Positions 1,813 to 62,414 of a stretch of DNA of 64,000 nucleotides are shown here, piece by piece. The position numbers and the translations under genes are program-made. The DNA comes from Microbacterium sp. (lineage in GTDB: Bacteria > Actinomycetota > Actinomycetes > Actinomycetales > Microbacteriaceae). The notes below the pieces were generated by a model that was not told where the DNA came from, ran no database searches, and worked only from the letters and a program-made list of their open reading frames with translations. How positions within the stretch are numbered: the first letter of the stretch is position 1; each line of letters begins with the position of its first letter. The DNA lies in NCBI GenBank assembly GCA_031555515.1, contig JAVBUG010000158.1:1591-65590 (forward strand), in the 5' to 3' direction.

Positions 1813-2529
1813 ATGAGTGCGGCAGGAGTTTCGGGACGCGTCGTCCTGATCGCCGGGGCGACGAGCGCATCGGGCCTGACGGCATCCCGCGTCCTGCGCG
1901 ACGCCGGTGCCCGTGTGGTGGCTGTCGGGCGCAACGACCGCAAACTGCGTGAGTTGGTCGATTCACTCGACACGGATGCCGCGCCCCTGGGCACTGCGCC
2001 GGCAGGAAGCGTCCGAACCGAGGTGTGCGACCTGGGTGACGAGTCAGCGGTGGCTTCCCTCGCGGAGCGCGTCCACAACACGGACGGAACAGTCGACGGC
2101 GTGTTGCACCTCGTCGGCGGTTGGCGCGGCGGCGGCGGGCTCGCCGGGCAGACCGACGCCGACTTCCGCTTCCTCGAGGGCTCGCTCACCGCGCTGCGCC
2201 ACGTGAGCCGTGCGTTCGACGCCGATCTGCGGGCATCCGGGGCCGGACGCCTCGCCGTGGTGTCGTCCACGGCGGTGGCGCGTCCGCTCGCCGGCGGCGC
2301 GAACTACGCCGCGGTGAAGGCCGCGACCGAGGCGTGGACGCGCGCCGTCGCGCAGGGCTTCGCGAAGGATGCCCGGGACTCCGGGAAGCCGCTGGCCGCA
2401 GCATCCGTCATCTTCCGTGTGAAGACCCTCGACGGGCTCGAGCCGGCGCTCGCGCAGCGGTTCGCCGACCTCTGGCTCGCCGATGCCGCCGAGCTCAACG
2501 ACACCGTGCTCGACCTCACGTCGAACTAG
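1813..2529 (+). CDS. SDR family oxidoreductase
   Basis: N-terminal VVLIAGATSASG Rossmann-like motif; YAAVK (YxxxK). Confidence 0.85.
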   Translation: MSAAGVSGRVVLIAGATSASGLTASRVLRDAGARVVAVGRNDRKLRELVDSLDTDAAPLGTAPAGSVRTEVCDLGDESAVASLAERVHNTDGTVDGVLHLVGGWRGGGGLAGQTDADFRFLEGSLTALRHVSRAFDADLRASGAGRLAVVSSTAVARPLAGGANYAAVKAATEAWTRAVAQGFAKDARDSGKPLAAASVIFRVKTLDGLEPALAQRFADLWLADAAELNDTVLDLTSN

Positions 2530-2540
2530 ATTGGACACCC

Positions 2541-3611
2541 GTGACCACGATCCACGACCCGAACCTGCGCGGCTTCGCCAGCGACAACTACTCCGGCATC
2601 CACCCCGAGGTGCTCGCGGCGATCGGTGCCGCAGGCGGCGGCCACCAGGTCGCGTACGGCGACGACGTCTACACCGAGCGCCTGCAGTCCGTGATGGCGC
2701 GCCACTTCGGCGAGGGCGTCGAGGCGTACCCGGTGTTCAACGGCACCGGCGCGAACGTCGTCGGGCTGCAGTCGATGCTCCCCCGCTGGGGCGCCGTGGT
2801 CTCGGCCGGTACCGCGCACATCAACGTCGACGAGGGCGGCGCGCCCGAGCGCGTGGCCGGCATCAAGCTGCTGACCGTCCCGACGGACGACGGCAAGCTC
2901 ACCCCGGCGCTCATCGACCGCGAGGCGTGGGGCTGGGGCGACGAGCACCGCGCGCAACCGCTCGTGGTGTCGATCACGCAGTCGACCGAGCTCGGCACGC
3001 TGTACACCGTCGATGAGATCACGGCGATCGCCGACCACGCGCACAGCCTCGGCATGCACGTGCACATGGACGGCTCGCGCATCTCGAACGCGGCCGCGTC
3101 GCTCGACGTGCCGTTCCGCGCCTTCACGCGCGACGCGGGCGTCGACGTGCTGAGCTTCGGCGGCACCAAGAACGGTGCGATGCTCGGCGAGGCCGTCGTG
3201 GTGCTCAACCCGTCGGCGTCGGAAGGGCTGAAGTTCCTCCGCAAGCTCGACATGCAGCTCGCCTCGAAGATGCGGTTCGTGTCGGCGCAGCTGCTCGCGC
3301 TCCTCGAGGGCGACCTGTGGCACCGCAACGCCTCGCACTCCAACGCGATGGCGCAGCGCCTGCGCGCCGGTATCGAGGCGGGGCTCGCCGACGGCACGAT
3401 CCAGGGCGTCGCGTTCACGCAGCCGACGCAGGCGAACGGCGTCTTCGCGACCCTGCCCGACGGCGTCGCCGAGCGCCTGCGCACCTCGTTCAAGTTCTAC
3501 GACTGGGATGCCGCGAAGAACGAGGTGCGCTGGATGTGCTCGTTCGACACGTCCGAGAACGACATCGACGCCTTCCTCGCGGCGATCGCGCGGGAGACCT
3601 CGGCGGCCTGA
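2541..3611 (+). CDS. ltaE: Low-specificity L-threonine aldolase (PLP)
   Basis: FASDNYSG, NGTGAN, HMDGSR, SFGGTKNG (PLP lysine), SKMRF; GTG start 2541. Confidence 0.85.
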   Translation: MTTIHDPNLRGFASDNYSGIHPEVLAAIGAAGGGHQVAYGDDVYTERLQSVMARHFGEGVEAYPVFNGTGANVVGLQSMLPRWGAVVSAGTAHINVDEGGAPERVAGIKLLTVPTDDGKLTPALIDREAWGWGDEHRAQPLVVSITQSTELGTLYTVDEITAIADHAHSLGMHVHMDGSRISNAAASLDVPFRAFTRDAGVDVLSFGGTKNGAMLGEAVVVLNPSASEGLKFLRKLDMQLASKMRFVSAQLLALLEGDLWHRNASHSNAMAQRLRAGIEAGLADGTIQGVAFTQPTQANGVFATLPDGVAERLRTSFKFYDWDAAKNEVRWMCSFDTSENDIDAFLAAIARETSAA

Positions 3612-59992: not shown

Positions 59993-60038
59993 CGGCGCGG
60001 CCGGGCGCTCCGGCGGGGAGCCGCCCGGCAGCGGAGCA

Positions 60039-62414
60039 TCACTCGCCTAGCGTCACCGACACCGTCGCGTGGCGCCGCCGCGTGTGATCGACGTACCGGG
60101 GCTCGCCCACGACGGCGACCGTGCGCGTCGCGACGATCTCGCCGCTGGACCGGCCGAACCCGAACACGAGATCGCCGGACTCGATGACGCGCCGCCCGTC
60201 GCGGCCGGTGAAGGCGGCGAGGTCGGCGGGCACGTCGAACGACACCCGTGCTCTTTCGCCCGCGGCGAGGGGCACGCGGGCGTAGGCGATGAGCCGGCGC
60301 ACCGGTCGCACGACGGAAGCGACCGGGTCGTGGAGGTACAGCTGCACGACCTCGACGCCGCCACGGTCGCCGGCGTTGCCGACGTGGATCGACACCGTGA
60401 CCGAGCCGGTCGTCGACATCTCGGAGGCCGAGGCCGCAGCATCCACCCACACCGACGGCGCGTACCCGAGACCGTGGCCGAACGGGTACGCGGGGGTGGG
60501 ATCGATGTTCGAGACGTCGCTGCGGCGCGCGAGTCTCGCTGCGAGATAGGTCGAGGGCTGCGCCCCCGGATCGCGAGGGATGCTGACGGGGAGGCGCCCG
60601 CTCGGATTCACCCGGCCGCTCAGCACACCGGCGATCGCTCCGGTGCCCTCCTCGCCGGCGAAGAAGCTCTGCACGATCGCCGCGGCCCGCTCGGGCGCGG
60701 TGCCGAGCGCATACGGACGACCCGCGAGGAGCGTCACGACAGTCGGCGTCCCCGTGTCGAGCACCGCGTCGAGCAGAGCCTGCTGCGCGCCGGGCAGGGT
60801 GAGGTCCGCCGCGTCGCACCCCTCGCCGCTCGTGCCGCGGCCGAACAGGCCCGCGCGATCGCCGAGCGCGAGCACGACGACGTCGGCTCCGGCCGCAGCG
60901 GCGAGCGCCTCGGCGAACCCGCCCGTCTCGCCCCCGTCGATCGTCGTCCCCGCCGCGTGCACGATCTCCGCGCCGGCGAACTCCGCGGCGAGCGCCTCGC
61001 GCAGCGTGGGCAGCGCGATACCGAGGGGGAGTTCGGGATGCCGCACCCCGACGTGCGACGGGAACGAATAGCACCCGAGCACGGCGTAGGGGTCGTCGGC
61101 GGCCGGCCCGATCACCGCGATGCGGCGCGGCTCCGCGAGTGGCAGCACCCCGTCGTTGCGCAGCAGCACGATCGCCTCCTCGGCGATGCGGCGGGCGAGC
61201 TCGCGGCCCTCGGGCGGGTCGAGGTCGACGGTGCCGCGCACCGCCTCGAGCGACGCGTCGTCGATTCCTGCGAGCACCGGAGGCACCGGCGACCAGTCGA
61301 CGTCGAGCAGGCCGAGCTCGGCCTTCTGCCGCAGCACGCGCCGCAGGGCGCGGTCCACGATCGCGCCGTCCACCTCGCCCGCCTCGACGGCGCGCACGAG
61401 GTCGGCGCCGAACGTCTTCACCGTGGGCAGCTCGACGTCGATGCCGGCGGAGAGGGCTCGGGCGGCAGCATCCGTCCATCCGTCGGCCACGCCGTGCAGG
61501 TCCTTGAGGAAGGCGATCGAGAAGTAGTCCGCGACCACCGTGCCCTCGAAGCCCCACTCGTCGCGGAGGAGGTCCGTGAGCAGAGAGGCGTCGGCCGCCG
61601 TCGGCACGCCGTCGAGGTCGGTGTAGGAGTTCATGACCGAGCGCACGCCGCTCTCGCGGATCGCCATCTCGAACGGCGGGAGCAGCACGTCGGCGAGCTC
61701 GCGCGGGCCGACCGAGACGGGCGCGAGGTTGCGTCCGCCCTTCGACGCCGAGTAGCCGACGAAGTGCTTGAGCGTCGCGACGACCCCCGCGCTCTCGACG
61801 CCCTGGATGTAGGCGGTCGCGACGGTGCCGACGAGGTACGGATCCTCGCCGATGGTCTCTTCGACGCGGCCCCAGCGCGCGTCGCGCACGACGTCGAGCA
61901 CGGGCGCGAGCCCCTGGTGCACGCCTACCGAGCGCAGGTCGGCGCCGATCCGCGCGCCCATCTCGCGCACGATGTCGGGGTCGAACGTCGCACCCCAGCT
62001 GAGCGGGACCGGGTACGCGGTGGCACCCCACGTCGCGAACCCGGCGAGACATTCCTCGTGCGCGAGCGCCGGGATGCCGAACCGGTTGGCGGCGACGATG
62101 CGCTGCTGGGCGCGCTGGAGCGCGAGCGCGCCGGTCGCCGGGTCGACCGGAGCCGTGCCGAACGGGCGCGTGAGCTGGCCGAGCCCTGCCGGGAGGAGCG
62201 CGTCGAGGTCGATGTCGTCCGACATGTCGTGCTGGTGCGGGGCGACGTCTTCTCCGTCGGTGGATGCCCCGACCCACACGCCGTAGAGCTGCGCGACCTT
62301 CTCGGCCACCGTCATCTCGGCGATGAGTGCCTCGACGCGCGCGGCGATCGGCAGGGCCGGGTCGTTCCAGATGCTCAGGGTCGCGGCATCCGTCATCTGA
62401 TTCTCCATCGTCAT
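60039..62414 (-). CDS. GH3 beta-xylosidase/beta-glucosidase
   Basis: HEECLAG, RWGRVEETIGEDP, TLKHF, VVADY, FGHGLGY, FN3-like C-terminus. Confidence 0.92.
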   Translation of the reverse strand: MTMENQMTDAATLSIWNDPALPIAARVEALIAEMTVAEKVAQLYGVWVGASTDGEDVAPHQHDMSDDIDLDALLPAGLGQLTRPFGTAPVDPATGALALQRAQQRIVAANRFGIPALAHEECLAGFATWGATAYPVPLSWGATFDPDIVREMGARIGADLRSVGVHQGLAPVLDVVRDARWGRVEETIGEDPYLVGTVATAYIQGVESAGVVATLKHFVGYSASKGGRNLAPVSVGPRELADVLLPPFEMAIRESGVRSVMNSYTDLDGVPTAADASLLTDLLRDEWGFEGTVVADYFSIAFLKDLHGVADGWTDAAARALSAGIDVELPTVKTFGADLVRAVEAGEVDGAIVDRALRRVLRQKAELGLLDVDWSPVPPVLAGIDDASLEAVRGTVDLDPPEGRELARRIAEEAIVLLRNDGVLPLAEPRRIAVIGPAADDPYAVLGCYSFPSHVGVRHPELPLGIALPTLREALAAEFAGAEIVHAAGTTIDGGETGGFAEALAAAAGADVVVLALGDRAGLFGRGTSGEGCDAADLTLPGAQQALLDAVLDTGTPTVVTLLAGRPYALGTAPERAAAIVQSFFAGEEGTGAIAGVLSGRVNPSGRLPVSIPRDPGAQPSTYLAARLARRSDVSNIDPTPAYPFGHGLGYAPSVWVDAAASASEMSTTGSVTVSIHVGNAGDRGGVEVVQLYLHDPVASVVRPVRRLIAYARVPLAAGERARVSFDVPADLAAFTGRDGRRVIESGDLVFGFGRSSGEIVATRTVAVVGEPRYVDHTRRRHATVSVTLGE

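Follow-up and report, generated by a model that had tools for sequence, protein, structure and literature searches.

GGATGCYGC, the local dialect of a Microbacteriaceae-wide DNA word, with a genome anatomy like that of DNA-uptake sequences or HIP1

The genome of a Microbacterium sp. is dotted with a nonpalindromic DNA word, GGATGCYGC, that is genuine, operates at the level of DNA itself, and is the local T dialect of a word spread throughout the Microbacteriaceae. A sequence-only reading of the 64,000-nucleotide stretch analyzed here (contig JAVBUG010000158.1; referred to as the window) had likened the word to DNA-uptake sequences (DUS) or to cyanobacterial HIP1, and its genome anatomy does resemble theirs. 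With modest confidence, we tentatively read the word as a self-tag that is recognized by a protein and kept by recognition-dependent drive, most like the DUS of Neisseriaceae (a 12-mer read by the minor pilin ComP) and the USS of Pasteurellaceae.

We searched the window for exact matches to the word and compared the counts with shuffled sequence. The sequence-only reading had counted at least 30 T-form copies, and all 30 coordinates that it listed are exact matches (18 on the minus strand, as GCAGCATCC, and 12 on the plus strand, as GGATGCTGC); its estimate of about one copy from composition agrees with 100 dinucleotide-preserving shuffles, which yielded 0.99 +/- 0.92 copies of GGATGCTGC (maximum, 3) versus the observed 30. 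The C variants that it mentioned amount to 28 further copies, giving 58 GGATGCYGC in the window versus 3.8 +/- 2.2 expected, and the 8-mer core GGATGCYG matches 85 times. Most T-form copies (25/30 by crude gene calls) are coding, as had been claimed. The copies are located as follows.

434..62391, both strands: overall span of the 58 dispersed GGATGCYGC copies (pattern search with shuffles)
2398, 3857, 8499, 24246, 28071, 31465, 37322, 38209, 39325, 44406, 45507, 50186, 54081, 55162, 56041, 56644, 60436, 61465, minus strand: T-form copies (exact pattern search)
13324, 14835, 17318, 20345, 26380, 27535, 35457, 38297, 39566, 55186, 58107, 59257, plus strand: T-form copies (exact pattern search)
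434, 1974, 3506, 5814, 7595, 9653, 22440, 29485, 30528, 31808, 37506, 38872, 48843, 48883, 52839, 55419, 61036, plus strand: C-form copies (exact pattern search)
14429, 14807, 16645, 25776, 27421, 35346, 36985, 40251, 42496, 49439, 62383, minus strand: C-form copies (exact pattern search)
13324..13332, plus strand: single in-gene copy with full flanks (gAC-GGATGCTGC-G), on the sense strand of an ABC-F-type gene; its frame, xxG GAT GCT GCx, encodes Asp-Ala-Ala with two disfavored codons
59257..59265, plus strand: single intergenic copy with no partner arm (folding z = -0.25, no significant structure)

The genome as a whole has 1588 T-form and 1329 C-form 9-mers, placing GGATGCYGC at about 1 per kb over both strands, and the core GGATGCYG occurs 4492 times (1.09/kb). 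The observed-to-expected ratio (O/E) of the word is 23 to 27 under Markov models of order 1 to 2 and 9.8 under order 3, and the word ranks first among the genome's 10-, 11-, and 12-mers. When synonymous codons were shuffled within each gene with the amino acid sequence kept, 93 +/- 10 T-form copies were expected versus 1169 observed, 297 C-form copies versus 1033, and 6.6 copies of the 12-mer ACGGATGCTGCG versus 371; the excess over the shuffle is 12.5-fold for the T 9-mer and 26-fold for the 11-mer. Each of the six frame/orientation classes is enriched (1.8- to 20.7-fold), as is intergenic DNA (5.9-fold). The word does force rare A/T-ending codons, as had been proposed, with xCR-GCA-TCC at 20.7-fold and xxG-GAT-GCY at 5.3-fold over the shuffle. 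Because the excess survives the synonymous shuffle and extends to all six frames and intergenic DNA, the refutation that the sequence-only reading had envisaged, loss of enrichment under a codon- and dipeptide-preserving null, fails.

The full consensus, gAC-GGATGC(T>C)GC-GgCC, has a core that is all-or-none and flanks that are graded, a profile like that of recognition by a protein. Any mismatch in GGATGC lowers the O/E from 26 to 0.4 to 2.4, position 7 is T (O/E, 26) or C (5.8), and the flanks range from 7 to 14. One-off neighbors of the word are neither depleted nor enriched (132 observed versus 137 expected). The suspected lack of strong strand bias holds both in the window (12 plus, 18 minus) and genome-wide (810/778), and there is no transcription polarity (604 sense versus 549 antisense). 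Orientation per contig is not overdispersed but rather underdispersed (chi-square of 140 on 227 df), and in T2, a complete relative, the strands carry 804/809 copies, with plus-strand density over the first 570 kb equal to the genome mean; these orientation counts reveal neither a replichore bias nor a KOPS/AIMS-type strand skew that switches at the origin or terminus. A copy and its neighbor are opposed in 1558 cases and parallel in 985, and spacing is Poisson-like (CV, 0.96 to 1.07), with evenness no greater than random. The word is not its own reverse complement, and just 16 overlapping palindromic pairs occur.

Convergent copies are in excess at exactly 14-nt spacing, forming perfect hairpins 10 to 30 nt past gene ends; close convergent pairs number 131, and their long perfect hairpins mostly lie directly beyond gene ends. 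Two inverted pairs lie in the window.

14802..14848, plus strand: inverted pair, 21-bp hairpin (folding, -42.2 kcal/mol; z = -4.64 versus 200 shuffles)
55155..55203, minus strand: inverted pair, 13-bp core stem plus outer pairs (folding, -30.7 kcal/mol; z = -5.58)

The first, which is terminator-like, begins 8 nt past the end of the ABC-F-type gene (crude call, 13115-14794, plus strand), and its arms are a C-form copy (14807-14815, minus strand) and a T-form copy (14835-14843, plus strand). The second sits at a gene boundary on the minus strand, is matched in stability by 0/200 shuffles, and has two T-form arms (55162-55170, minus strand; 55186-55194, plus strand). Word density falls from 2.56 per kb in convergent spacers through 1.85 (tandem) to 1.11 (divergent), compared with 1.01 within coding sequence, and inverted pairs occupy 8.2% of convergent versus 1.1% of divergent spacers. 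On the basis of this folding and placement, the inverted pairs are predicted to be terminator-like hairpins at gene 3' ends.

The word is not peculiar to this Microbacterium genome. The suggested comparison across the Microbacteriaceae revealed enrichment in most of 101 genera, which carry related dialects (GGATGCTGCG, GGATGCCG, CCGGATGCC(G/A), GGATGGCC, and GGATCCTGCG), while 23 other families of the order are not enriched. A literature search found no published equivalent, in line with the sequence-only reading, which knew of none.

Word copies are kept more often than neighboring sequence (site retention of 56 to 62% versus 37 to 46% for phase-matched neighboring 8-mers) and are missing from recently acquired DNA. 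Depletion in islands, another suggested comparison, is evident: the motif-poor deserts have lower GC and comprise a conjugative element of the relaxase/SNF2/ParA kind together with polysaccharide islands and a gene for a STAND NTPase. Ordinary single-base changes create new copies and can fall on any position of the motif where coding tolerates them, mostly at synonymous sites and in terminator stems; among lost sites, 57/59 differ by substitution, with all eight positions affected. Preference for a particular word drifts from lineage to lineage. In the relatives G106 and G112, 17/26 and 17/28 aligned T sites, respectively, are C-form copies; the T form came from in situ C-to-T change at position 7 of older copies. 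As part of the self-tag reading, it is possible, though we would not presume it, that this dialect switch is still in progress within the M. trichothecenolyticum group.

Under the self-tag reading, a sequence-specific protein would recognize the word in duplex or single-stranded form, and its abundance of about 1 copy per kb would be sustained by molecular drive, a fixation bias that depends on recognition, rather than by a coding or RNA function. Word-bearing fragments would be favored in uptake, or in transfer and recombination by another route, the mechanism proposed for DUS and USS; alleles gaining the word would then spread, and the word would come to mark "self" DNA. Of the candidate roles proposed earlier, an uptake signal fits best, judged on anatomy, and every anatomical feature listed here would follow equally from any other whole-word recognition that biases fixation. 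Competence-gene homologues include ComEC, DprA, and both tad-1-like and tad-2-like clusters, with ComEA beside ComEC in relatives; since such homologues are near-universal in bacteria, they lend little weight to uptake. Transformation in Micrococcus luteus depends on such a pair of Tad clusters, tad-1 and tad-2 (PMC4322843). The tad-1 orthologue is absent from 23/201 Microbacterium genomes, and the two of these that were sampled directly (G141 and G183) carry the word at 1.06 to 1.27/kb with their own flank dialect. Because these tad-1-less lineages keep full density, an M. luteus-type two-cluster pilus cannot be the required machinery; the second Tad cluster does not track the word. Only about one in three Microbacterium genomes has a type IV pilus (PilB), and our literature search found no uptake or transformation experiment in Microbacteriaceae. 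We know of no sequence-specific uptake in any Gram-positive bacterium. The word may conceivably be the first sequence-specific "self DNA" signal (a tag for uptake or transfer) in a Gram-positive lineage of actinobacteria, read by a putative receptor, a proposition that we consider doubtful; if it is true, an ongoing position 7 switch would let the reader be identified through sister-clade comparison.

A less likely explanation is an epigenetic or repair word like HIP1: a conserved solitary DNA methyltransferase would target the word or its GGATGC core, and a methylation-dependent process (strand discrimination, replication or chromosome-maintenance signaling, or methylation-directed repair bias) would maintain its abundance. 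HIP1 of cyanobacteria is hyperabundant and overlaps targets of conserved solitary methylases, and GGATG/GCATC, which holds the one A on each strand of the word, is a classic asymmetric methylase target. A solitary beta-class methylase (PF01555) lies among metabolic genes without a restriction partner; its nearest models are YhdJ-like and CcrM-like, with scores below their cutoffs, and its DPPF catalytic motif points to the N6-adenine type. It is a core gene (228/251 family genomes and 96/101 genera), and genera in which it was not found (g22, g31, g75, and g83) have none to weak C-form enrichment. However, the enzyme also occurs in genera with the word at control level (g21, g26, g28, g57, and g86) and in two other families (f7 and f9) without enrichment; it is a candidate reader whose distribution does not match that of the word. 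Across 201 genomes, Vsr (51/201; not found in G000) and C5 methylases (98/201; none in G019, which has 536 copies) do not track motif load, and G000, T2, and G108 have no PF02384 enzymes. Also against this explanation are the one-off neighbors, which occur at their expected number, and the word itself, which at about 11 to 12 nt, nonpalindromic, and with graded flanks is unlike typical methylase sites; gains and losses at all eight positions are not expected of a single-position repair bias. Of the methylation-linked role proposed earlier, then, the route through C5 methylases or Vsr repair is not supported, and a solitary methylase of the N6-adenine type is a candidate.

Somewhat less probable again is that the word binds an abundant chromosomal protein, with each site selected for a function at the level of the cell; the word would serve a nucleoid-associated or condensin-loading factor or be a self-marker restraining a nuclease or defense system. 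The sharp core with graded flanks, the family-wide occurrence, the retention above background, and the depletion in foreign DNA are all consistent with such a protein. Yet no candidate was found, and the nucleoid or partition sites that are known occur in tens to hundreds of copies, clear of coding constraint. About 4500 sites would imply a minute benefit per site, yet codon preference is overridden 5- to 20-fold, and the rapid turnover of dialects suits drive better than a conserved architecture.

We regard as improbable a Chi-like recombination hotspot, in which self DNA would be protected and repaired because the word attenuates a helicase-nuclease (RecBCD or AdnAB). The word is indeed the most overrepresented in the genome, native-rich, foreign-poor, and taxon-specific, traits shared with Chi, but it shows no leading-strand orientation bias, by either the per-contig counts or the T2 chromosome, and no sense/antisense bias; opposed neighbors predominate, and terminator pairing is not a Chi trait.

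Very improbable, and largely refuted for the bulk of copies, is the notion that the word is the remnant of a hairpin element (a REP/MITE-like repeat or conserved terminator RNA), with single copies as decayed halves. The 131 close convergent pairs beyond genes, the folding of the two window pairs, and the presence of a partner arm at 45% of intergenic copies versus 28% of controls favor it, whereas about 78% of core copies are coding (3468 versus 959 intergenic) and have a partner arm at the control rate (30.0% versus 29.9%), and orthologous nonmotif states are substitutions, not insertions. Loops and outer stems vary between hairpins yet stay complementary, which indicates that independent terminators each gained the word rather than being copies of one element. 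Finally, the idea that the word reflects coding or composition, through codon-pair or peptide bias in a genome of 70% GC, is refuted, for although the two favored frames encode common peptides (Asp-Ala-Ala and, on the other strand, Gly/Ser-Ile), the excess persists under the amino acid-preserving shuffle and in all six frames and intergenic DNA, and other high-GC families of the same order have ratios to a control word of only about 1 to 2.

Among known systems, Chi (GCTGGTGG of E. coli) is likewise a most overrepresented oligomer that marks native DNA in a taxon-specific manner, but GGATGCYGC lacks replication-strand skew, exceeds known Chi sites in length and, by a wide margin, in enrichment, and is paired in terminators. 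As with REP/BIME elements, intergenic copies make GC-rich hairpins after genes; unlike them, most copies are partnerless single arms within genes, and loops and outer stems are unconserved. HIP1 (GCGATCGC) is similarly hyperabundant at about 1 per kb, lies in genes in all frames, has taxon-wide variants, and co-occurs with solitary methyltransferases; it is a palindrome, whereas GGATGCYGC is not, and Vsr and C5 methylases do not track GGATGCYGC. From DUS and USS the word differs in its host, a Gram-positive family of high-GC actinobacteria in which natural transformation is not reported, in the patchy presence of a PilB pilus, and in the dispensability of tad-1 for keeping the word; a 2025 survey treats Neisseriaceae and Pasteurellaceae as the only families with such sequences (bioRxiv 10.1101/2025.10.24.684340). 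DUS are described as having family-wide lineage dialects (PMC3630211), and the present word, too, is shared by a whole family in dialects that change by in situ substitution. It resembles DUS and USS further in being a short nonpalindromic word present at about 1 per kb, well above its null expectation, equally on both strands and in all frames against codon preference, with a sharp core and graded flanks, inverted pairs that act as predicted terminators at gene 3' ends, and scarcity in mobile and foreign DNA.

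All 30 positions at which the sequence-only reading had placed the T form of the word GGATGCYGC (T rather than C at position 7) hold GGATGCTGC without a mismatch, in 12 cases on the plus strand and in 18 on the minus strand. The expectation of about one such copy in the window was borne out by dinucleotide-preserving shuffles, which gave 0.99 +/- 0.92. The C variants that it mentioned are also present, and GGATGCYGC as a whole occurs 58 times against 3.8 expected in DNA whose GC content is 70 to 73% along its whole length. We then counted the word across the source genome, G000 (a 4.11-Mb assembly in 387 contigs, 85% complete and slightly contaminated, whose contig C268 includes the window), in which the T form occurs 1588 times and the C form 1329 times. 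The T form is split 810/778 between the strands, in keeping with the reported absence of strong strand bias. The commonest 10-, 11-, and 12-mers of G000 are extensions of the word, which heads the list at every Markov order used; the observed/expected ratio (O/E) of the T form is 27, 23, 9.8, and 3.6 at orders 1, 2, 3, and 5, respectively.

Disappearance of the enrichment under a codon- and dipeptide-preserving null had been named as the outcome that would speak against the word, and the enrichment persists under a synonymous-codon shuffle. For this shuffle, 3324 crude gene calls were made by GC3 periodicity (85% of G000 DNA), and synonymous codons were shuffled within each gene, leaving protein sequences and per-gene codon usage unchanged. 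Coding DNA contains 1169 T-form copies versus 93 +/- 10 in the shuffles, 1033 C-form copies versus 297, and 371 copies of ACGGATGCTGCG versus 6.6. All six frame/orientation classes lie above the shuffle (1.8-, 2.6-, 4.2-, 5.3-, 6.0-, and 20.7-fold), and the largest excess falls where spelling the word requires two rare codons, xCR GCA TCC, as its suspected imposition of disfavored codons would have it. Intergenic DNA is enriched 5.9-fold over its own Markov-3 expectation. Because the excess survives the shuffle and is found in all six frames and in intergenic DNA, it is a signal at the level of DNA itself.

The consensus of the word is gAC-GGATGC-(T>C)-GC-G-g-CC. The 11-mer CGGATGCTGCG has an O/E of 25.9 against the shuffle null, and any single change within GGATGC lowers this to 0.4 to 2.4 (132 copies observed in sum, 137 expected). 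At position 7, T (25.9) or C (5.8) is tolerated and G and A are not, while the positions after it and both flanks contribute in a graded manner (O/E of 7 to 14), with stronger flanks at T-form than at C-form copies. G000 has 4492 copies of the 8-mer core, GGATGCYG (1.09 per kb). Spacing more even than random was sought for the core in G000 and not found; intervals are Poisson-like (coefficient of variation [CV], 0.96 to 1.07), and regular spacing was thus ruled out, as was a positional preference inside genes, given no bias over deciles. No polarity was found per contig or between sense and antisense in G000, or along the complete chromosome of Microbacterium trichothecenolyticum (T2). Orientation counts per contig are under-dispersed (chi2 of 140 on 227 df), adjacent copies are opposed 1558 times and parallel 985 times, and sense and antisense copy numbers are equal in the crude genes. 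The T2 chromosome has 804 plus-strand and 809 minus-strand copies, and plus-strand density over its first 570 kb equals the genome mean.

Some copies are paired. The spacing of convergent pairs peaks sharply at 14 nt (GGATGCYGC, five bases, GCRGCATCC), and 16 more copies overlap to form a 16-nt palindrome. Each of the 131 close pairs makes a perfect stem, 10 to 16 bp long; loops and outer stem bases vary between cases, and the pairs lie mostly 10 to 30 nt past the 3' end of a gene. Core density is 2.56 per kb in convergent spacers, 1.85 in tandem spacers, 1.11 in divergent spacers, and 1.01 in genes. Inverted pairs occur in 8.2% of convergent spacers, 4.3% of tandem spacers, and 1.1% of divergent spacers. 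The folding energies of two window pairs are -42.2 kcal/mol (z of -4.6) and -30.7 kcal/mol (z of -5.6), whereas folding against shuffles revealed no structure at single copies. Since a partner arm is no more frequent for in-gene copies than for control 9-mers (30.0% versus 29.9%) and is more frequent for intergenic copies (45% versus 28%), the unit is the single word, and terminator stems are sites able to hold it on both arms. The bulk of copies cannot be explained by coding bias, replication-polar words (Chi and KOPS), or mobile hairpin repeats. A separate family of dispersed repeats, with no relation to the word, was seen in the window at 3648-3680 and 34217-34230 and in excerpts L146-L149 and L168-L177. 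Its words GGTCGTTGAGCGAG and CGTTTCGTCTCG have 52 and 32 copies in G000 and occur 24 to 29 times per 200 kb (<1 expected) in the related genome G106; one possibility is a small REP/MITE-like element belonging to the M. trichothecenolyticum group.

A scan for the hairpin form among species-representative genomes matched many Microbacterium species (trichothecenolyticum, arthrosphaerae, yannicii, jejuense, and others) and also Microterricola. The 23-nt hairpin pattern was also seen, mostly on one strand only, in several haloarchaeal contigs (Halorubrum, Haloarcula, Natronomonas, and Salinigranum), at a frequency that we estimate to exceed chance. Among 200 Microbacterium species, the T-form 11-mer ranges continuously from the control level (~10 copies) to ~940. 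Four genomes at the low end, each sampled over 200 kb, are not motif free; rather, lineages use their own versions, or dialects, of the word. Typed from 200-kb samples of seven genomes, these include ACGGATGCCG in G106 (core at 1.08/kb), CCGGATGCC(G/A) in G141 and G183 (1.27 and 1.06/kb), and GCGGATGGCC in G075 (147 copies versus 19 expected). Among 250 Microbacteriaceae genomes, CGGATGCCG typically stands at 5 to 30 times the reversed-word control in most of 101 genera, a rough baseline applied to phylogenetically non-independent genomes, and is level with the control in genera with small genomes and in a few others. One genus "negative" for CGGATGCCG (g21, genome G320) uses GGATCCTGCG/GGCTCCTGCGCC instead, and the GGATGGCC and GGATCC lineages are independent dialect switches. 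The word/control ratio is ~1 to 2 in 23 families of the order other than Microbacteriaceae, and no comparable word was found in samples from two of these 23. Most genera being enriched and the other families not, the phenomenon is specific to Microbacteriaceae, with lineage dialects. Two other patterns were seen elsewhere: a 19-copy repeat with GGGATTGCATGATC in 200 kb of G025, from another family of the order (excerpts L228-L237), which looks like a small dispersed element, and a palindrome, CGACGTCG, at 5 times expectation in G032 (family f9).

Comparison with relatives shows how sites are kept and lost. Over the window, T2, G172, and G157 are 87 to 89% identical to G000. At the 85 core sites of the window, 69 to 75% still have the motif at the orthologous place, versus 41 to 48% for all 8-mers, and exact retention is 56 to 62%, versus 37 to 46% for phase-matched 8-mers within 90 nt. 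Losses are by substitution in 57 of 59 cases and hit all eight positions, position 7 being the most labile. The next relatives out, G106 and G112 (83 to 84% identical), have the C dialect, with 9 to 11 T-form versus 97 to 112 C-form sites per 80 kb, compared to 33 and 52 in the window. Because aligned T sites of G000 are C-form copies in G106 (17/26) and G112 (17/28), and its C sites remain C in both, the T dialect was produced for the most part by older copies changing from C to T at position 7. These changes lie mostly in frames where position 7 is synonymous. Members of the T clade are G000, T2, G157, G172, G129, and G204, with G106, G081, G112, G197, G094, G184, G152, and G199 as C-form sisters. 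Two enzymatic explanations were rejected. Vsr, the driver of very-short-patch repair, is present in 51 of 201 genomes independently of load (T-form 11-mer copies per genome; 2/12 top and 5/22 lowest genomes) and was not found in G000. A C5 methylase followed by deamination, as the source of the T form, also shows no tie to load (98/201 genomes): G019 has none despite 536 copies, G204 and G168 are not among the matches listed, and the stronger flanks of T-form copies also count against it.

The longest stretches of G000 without the motif have lower GC, and a 39-kb accessory-metabolism contig is likewise poor in the word. These stretches include the following:

G000 contig C15:27000-47000 (excerpt L122): motif-poor, lower-GC mobile element with a ParA-like ATPase, M23 peptidase, 1943-aa SNF2/ResIII helicase, and MobA/VirD2 relaxase
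Polysaccharide-synthesis islands: motif free, lower GC, with a sugar transferase, UDP-glucose dehydrogenase, and Wzy
STAND-WD40 NTPase: in a motif-free stretch of lower GC

The C15 element is probably an integrative conjugative or mobilizable element or a plasmid contig. Contigs C35 (8.1 kb, 28.7% GC) and C366 (3.1 kb, 43% GC) also lack the motif; their composition does not fit a genome of 70% GC, and binning contamination is their likely origin. Of 23 homopolymer G/C runs of at least 12 bases, 21 are found no more than 150 nt from a contig end; these are sequencing or assembly artifacts that inflate poly-G k-mer counts.

A process that recognizes the whole word would raise the fixation chance of any mutation that creates it; such recognition would work on resident DNA rather than on newly arrived DNA, and the preferred word would drift from lineage to lineage. 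By analogy with DUS and USS, we tentatively prefer a bias in DNA uptake or transfer as that process. The relevant loci in G000 are as follows:

Contigs C63 (excerpt L165:8515-13004), C172 (L166:10270-12742), and C180 (L167; PilB at C180:23011-24168): Tad/Flp clusters and pilus locus

Besides a PilB/PilT pair, G000 carries two Tad clusters, which match the layout of tad-1 and tad-2 of Micrococcus luteus, both needed for transformation in that species (PMC4322843). DprA is present; ComEA adjoins ComEC in relatives of every dialect and was not found in the incomplete G000 assembly. ComEC is uninformative because it is universal in both top and lowest genomes. The PilB type, present in about a third of 201 Microbacterium species, occurs in 6/12 top and 2/22 lowest genomes, yet four top genomes lack a type IV pilus. 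Next to the pilus locus is a stretch of 7 kb with low GC and no motif copy. Of 201 species, 23 have no tad-1 orthologue; these have a single TadA-type ATPase, and nearly all show only background counts of the T-form 11-mer, a correlation that seemed to favor uptake. It was ruled out by G141 (1.27/kb) and G183 (1.06/kb), which carry a C-form dialect at full density, and was phylogenetic confounding with dialect; since genomes without tad-1 keep the word, that cluster is not needed to maintain it.

Among the alternatives, a HIP1-like, methylation-linked role for a solitary methylase is unlikely but survives best. PF02384 (type I/IIG) methylases are absent from G000, T2, and G108. A PF01555 methylase is present in 10/10 Microbacterium genomes tested, and a second one was seen on the contig of the mobile element (C15:54414-55124). 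The PF01555 candidate for this role is the following:

G000 contig C272:12722-13900 (excerpt L158:2220-3401), minus strand: solitary beta-class methylase with a DPPF motif (N6-adenine type)

It is flanked by a luciferase-like monooxygenase and a carboxylesterase, one on each side. With 228 of 251 family genomes carrying it, at 60 to 79% identity across almost the whole Microbacteriaceae, it is a core gene, an unusual degree of conservation for an enzyme without a restriction partner; it also occurs in two other families and in genera without C-form word enrichment. If methylation linked, the word would be a nonpalindromic counterpart of HIP1. Somewhat less probable is that GGATGCYGC is the binding word of a chromosomal protein, selected site by site, and a non-polar Chi-like word is improbable.

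In the open literature, we found neither a description of the word nor one of any uptake-type sequence from Actinobacteria; literal text searches for the word returned only primers and no paper tying it to methylation or Actinobacteria. Uptake-type sequences are described as confined to Neisseriaceae and Pasteurellaceae in a 2025 survey (bioRxiv 10.1101/2025.10.24.684340). The word spans a whole actinobacterial family, including the plant pathogens Clavibacter, Leifsonia, and Rathayibacter as well as soil- and plant-associated genera. Its clear dialects, with a shift caught under way, make it a tractable system for finding the readers of such words and following their spread, and word and dialects together mark Microbacteriaceae genomes sharply enough to help in binning and in detecting foreign DNA. 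Were it an uptake or transfer tag, it would point to unrecognized natural gene exchange in Microbacteriaceae and offer a practical route to genetic tractability of these hard-to-transform bacteria.

Hyperabundant genomic words are rare, and the known cases have each been informative about DNA transactions: sequence-specific uptake and self-recognition in transformation came to light through DUS and USS, and the control of recombinational repair through Chi. To our knowledge, HIP1 is still an open problem. Among such systems, the biased uptake and recombination of self DNA that underlies DUS and USS is the sole well-understood process with an exactly matching footprint.
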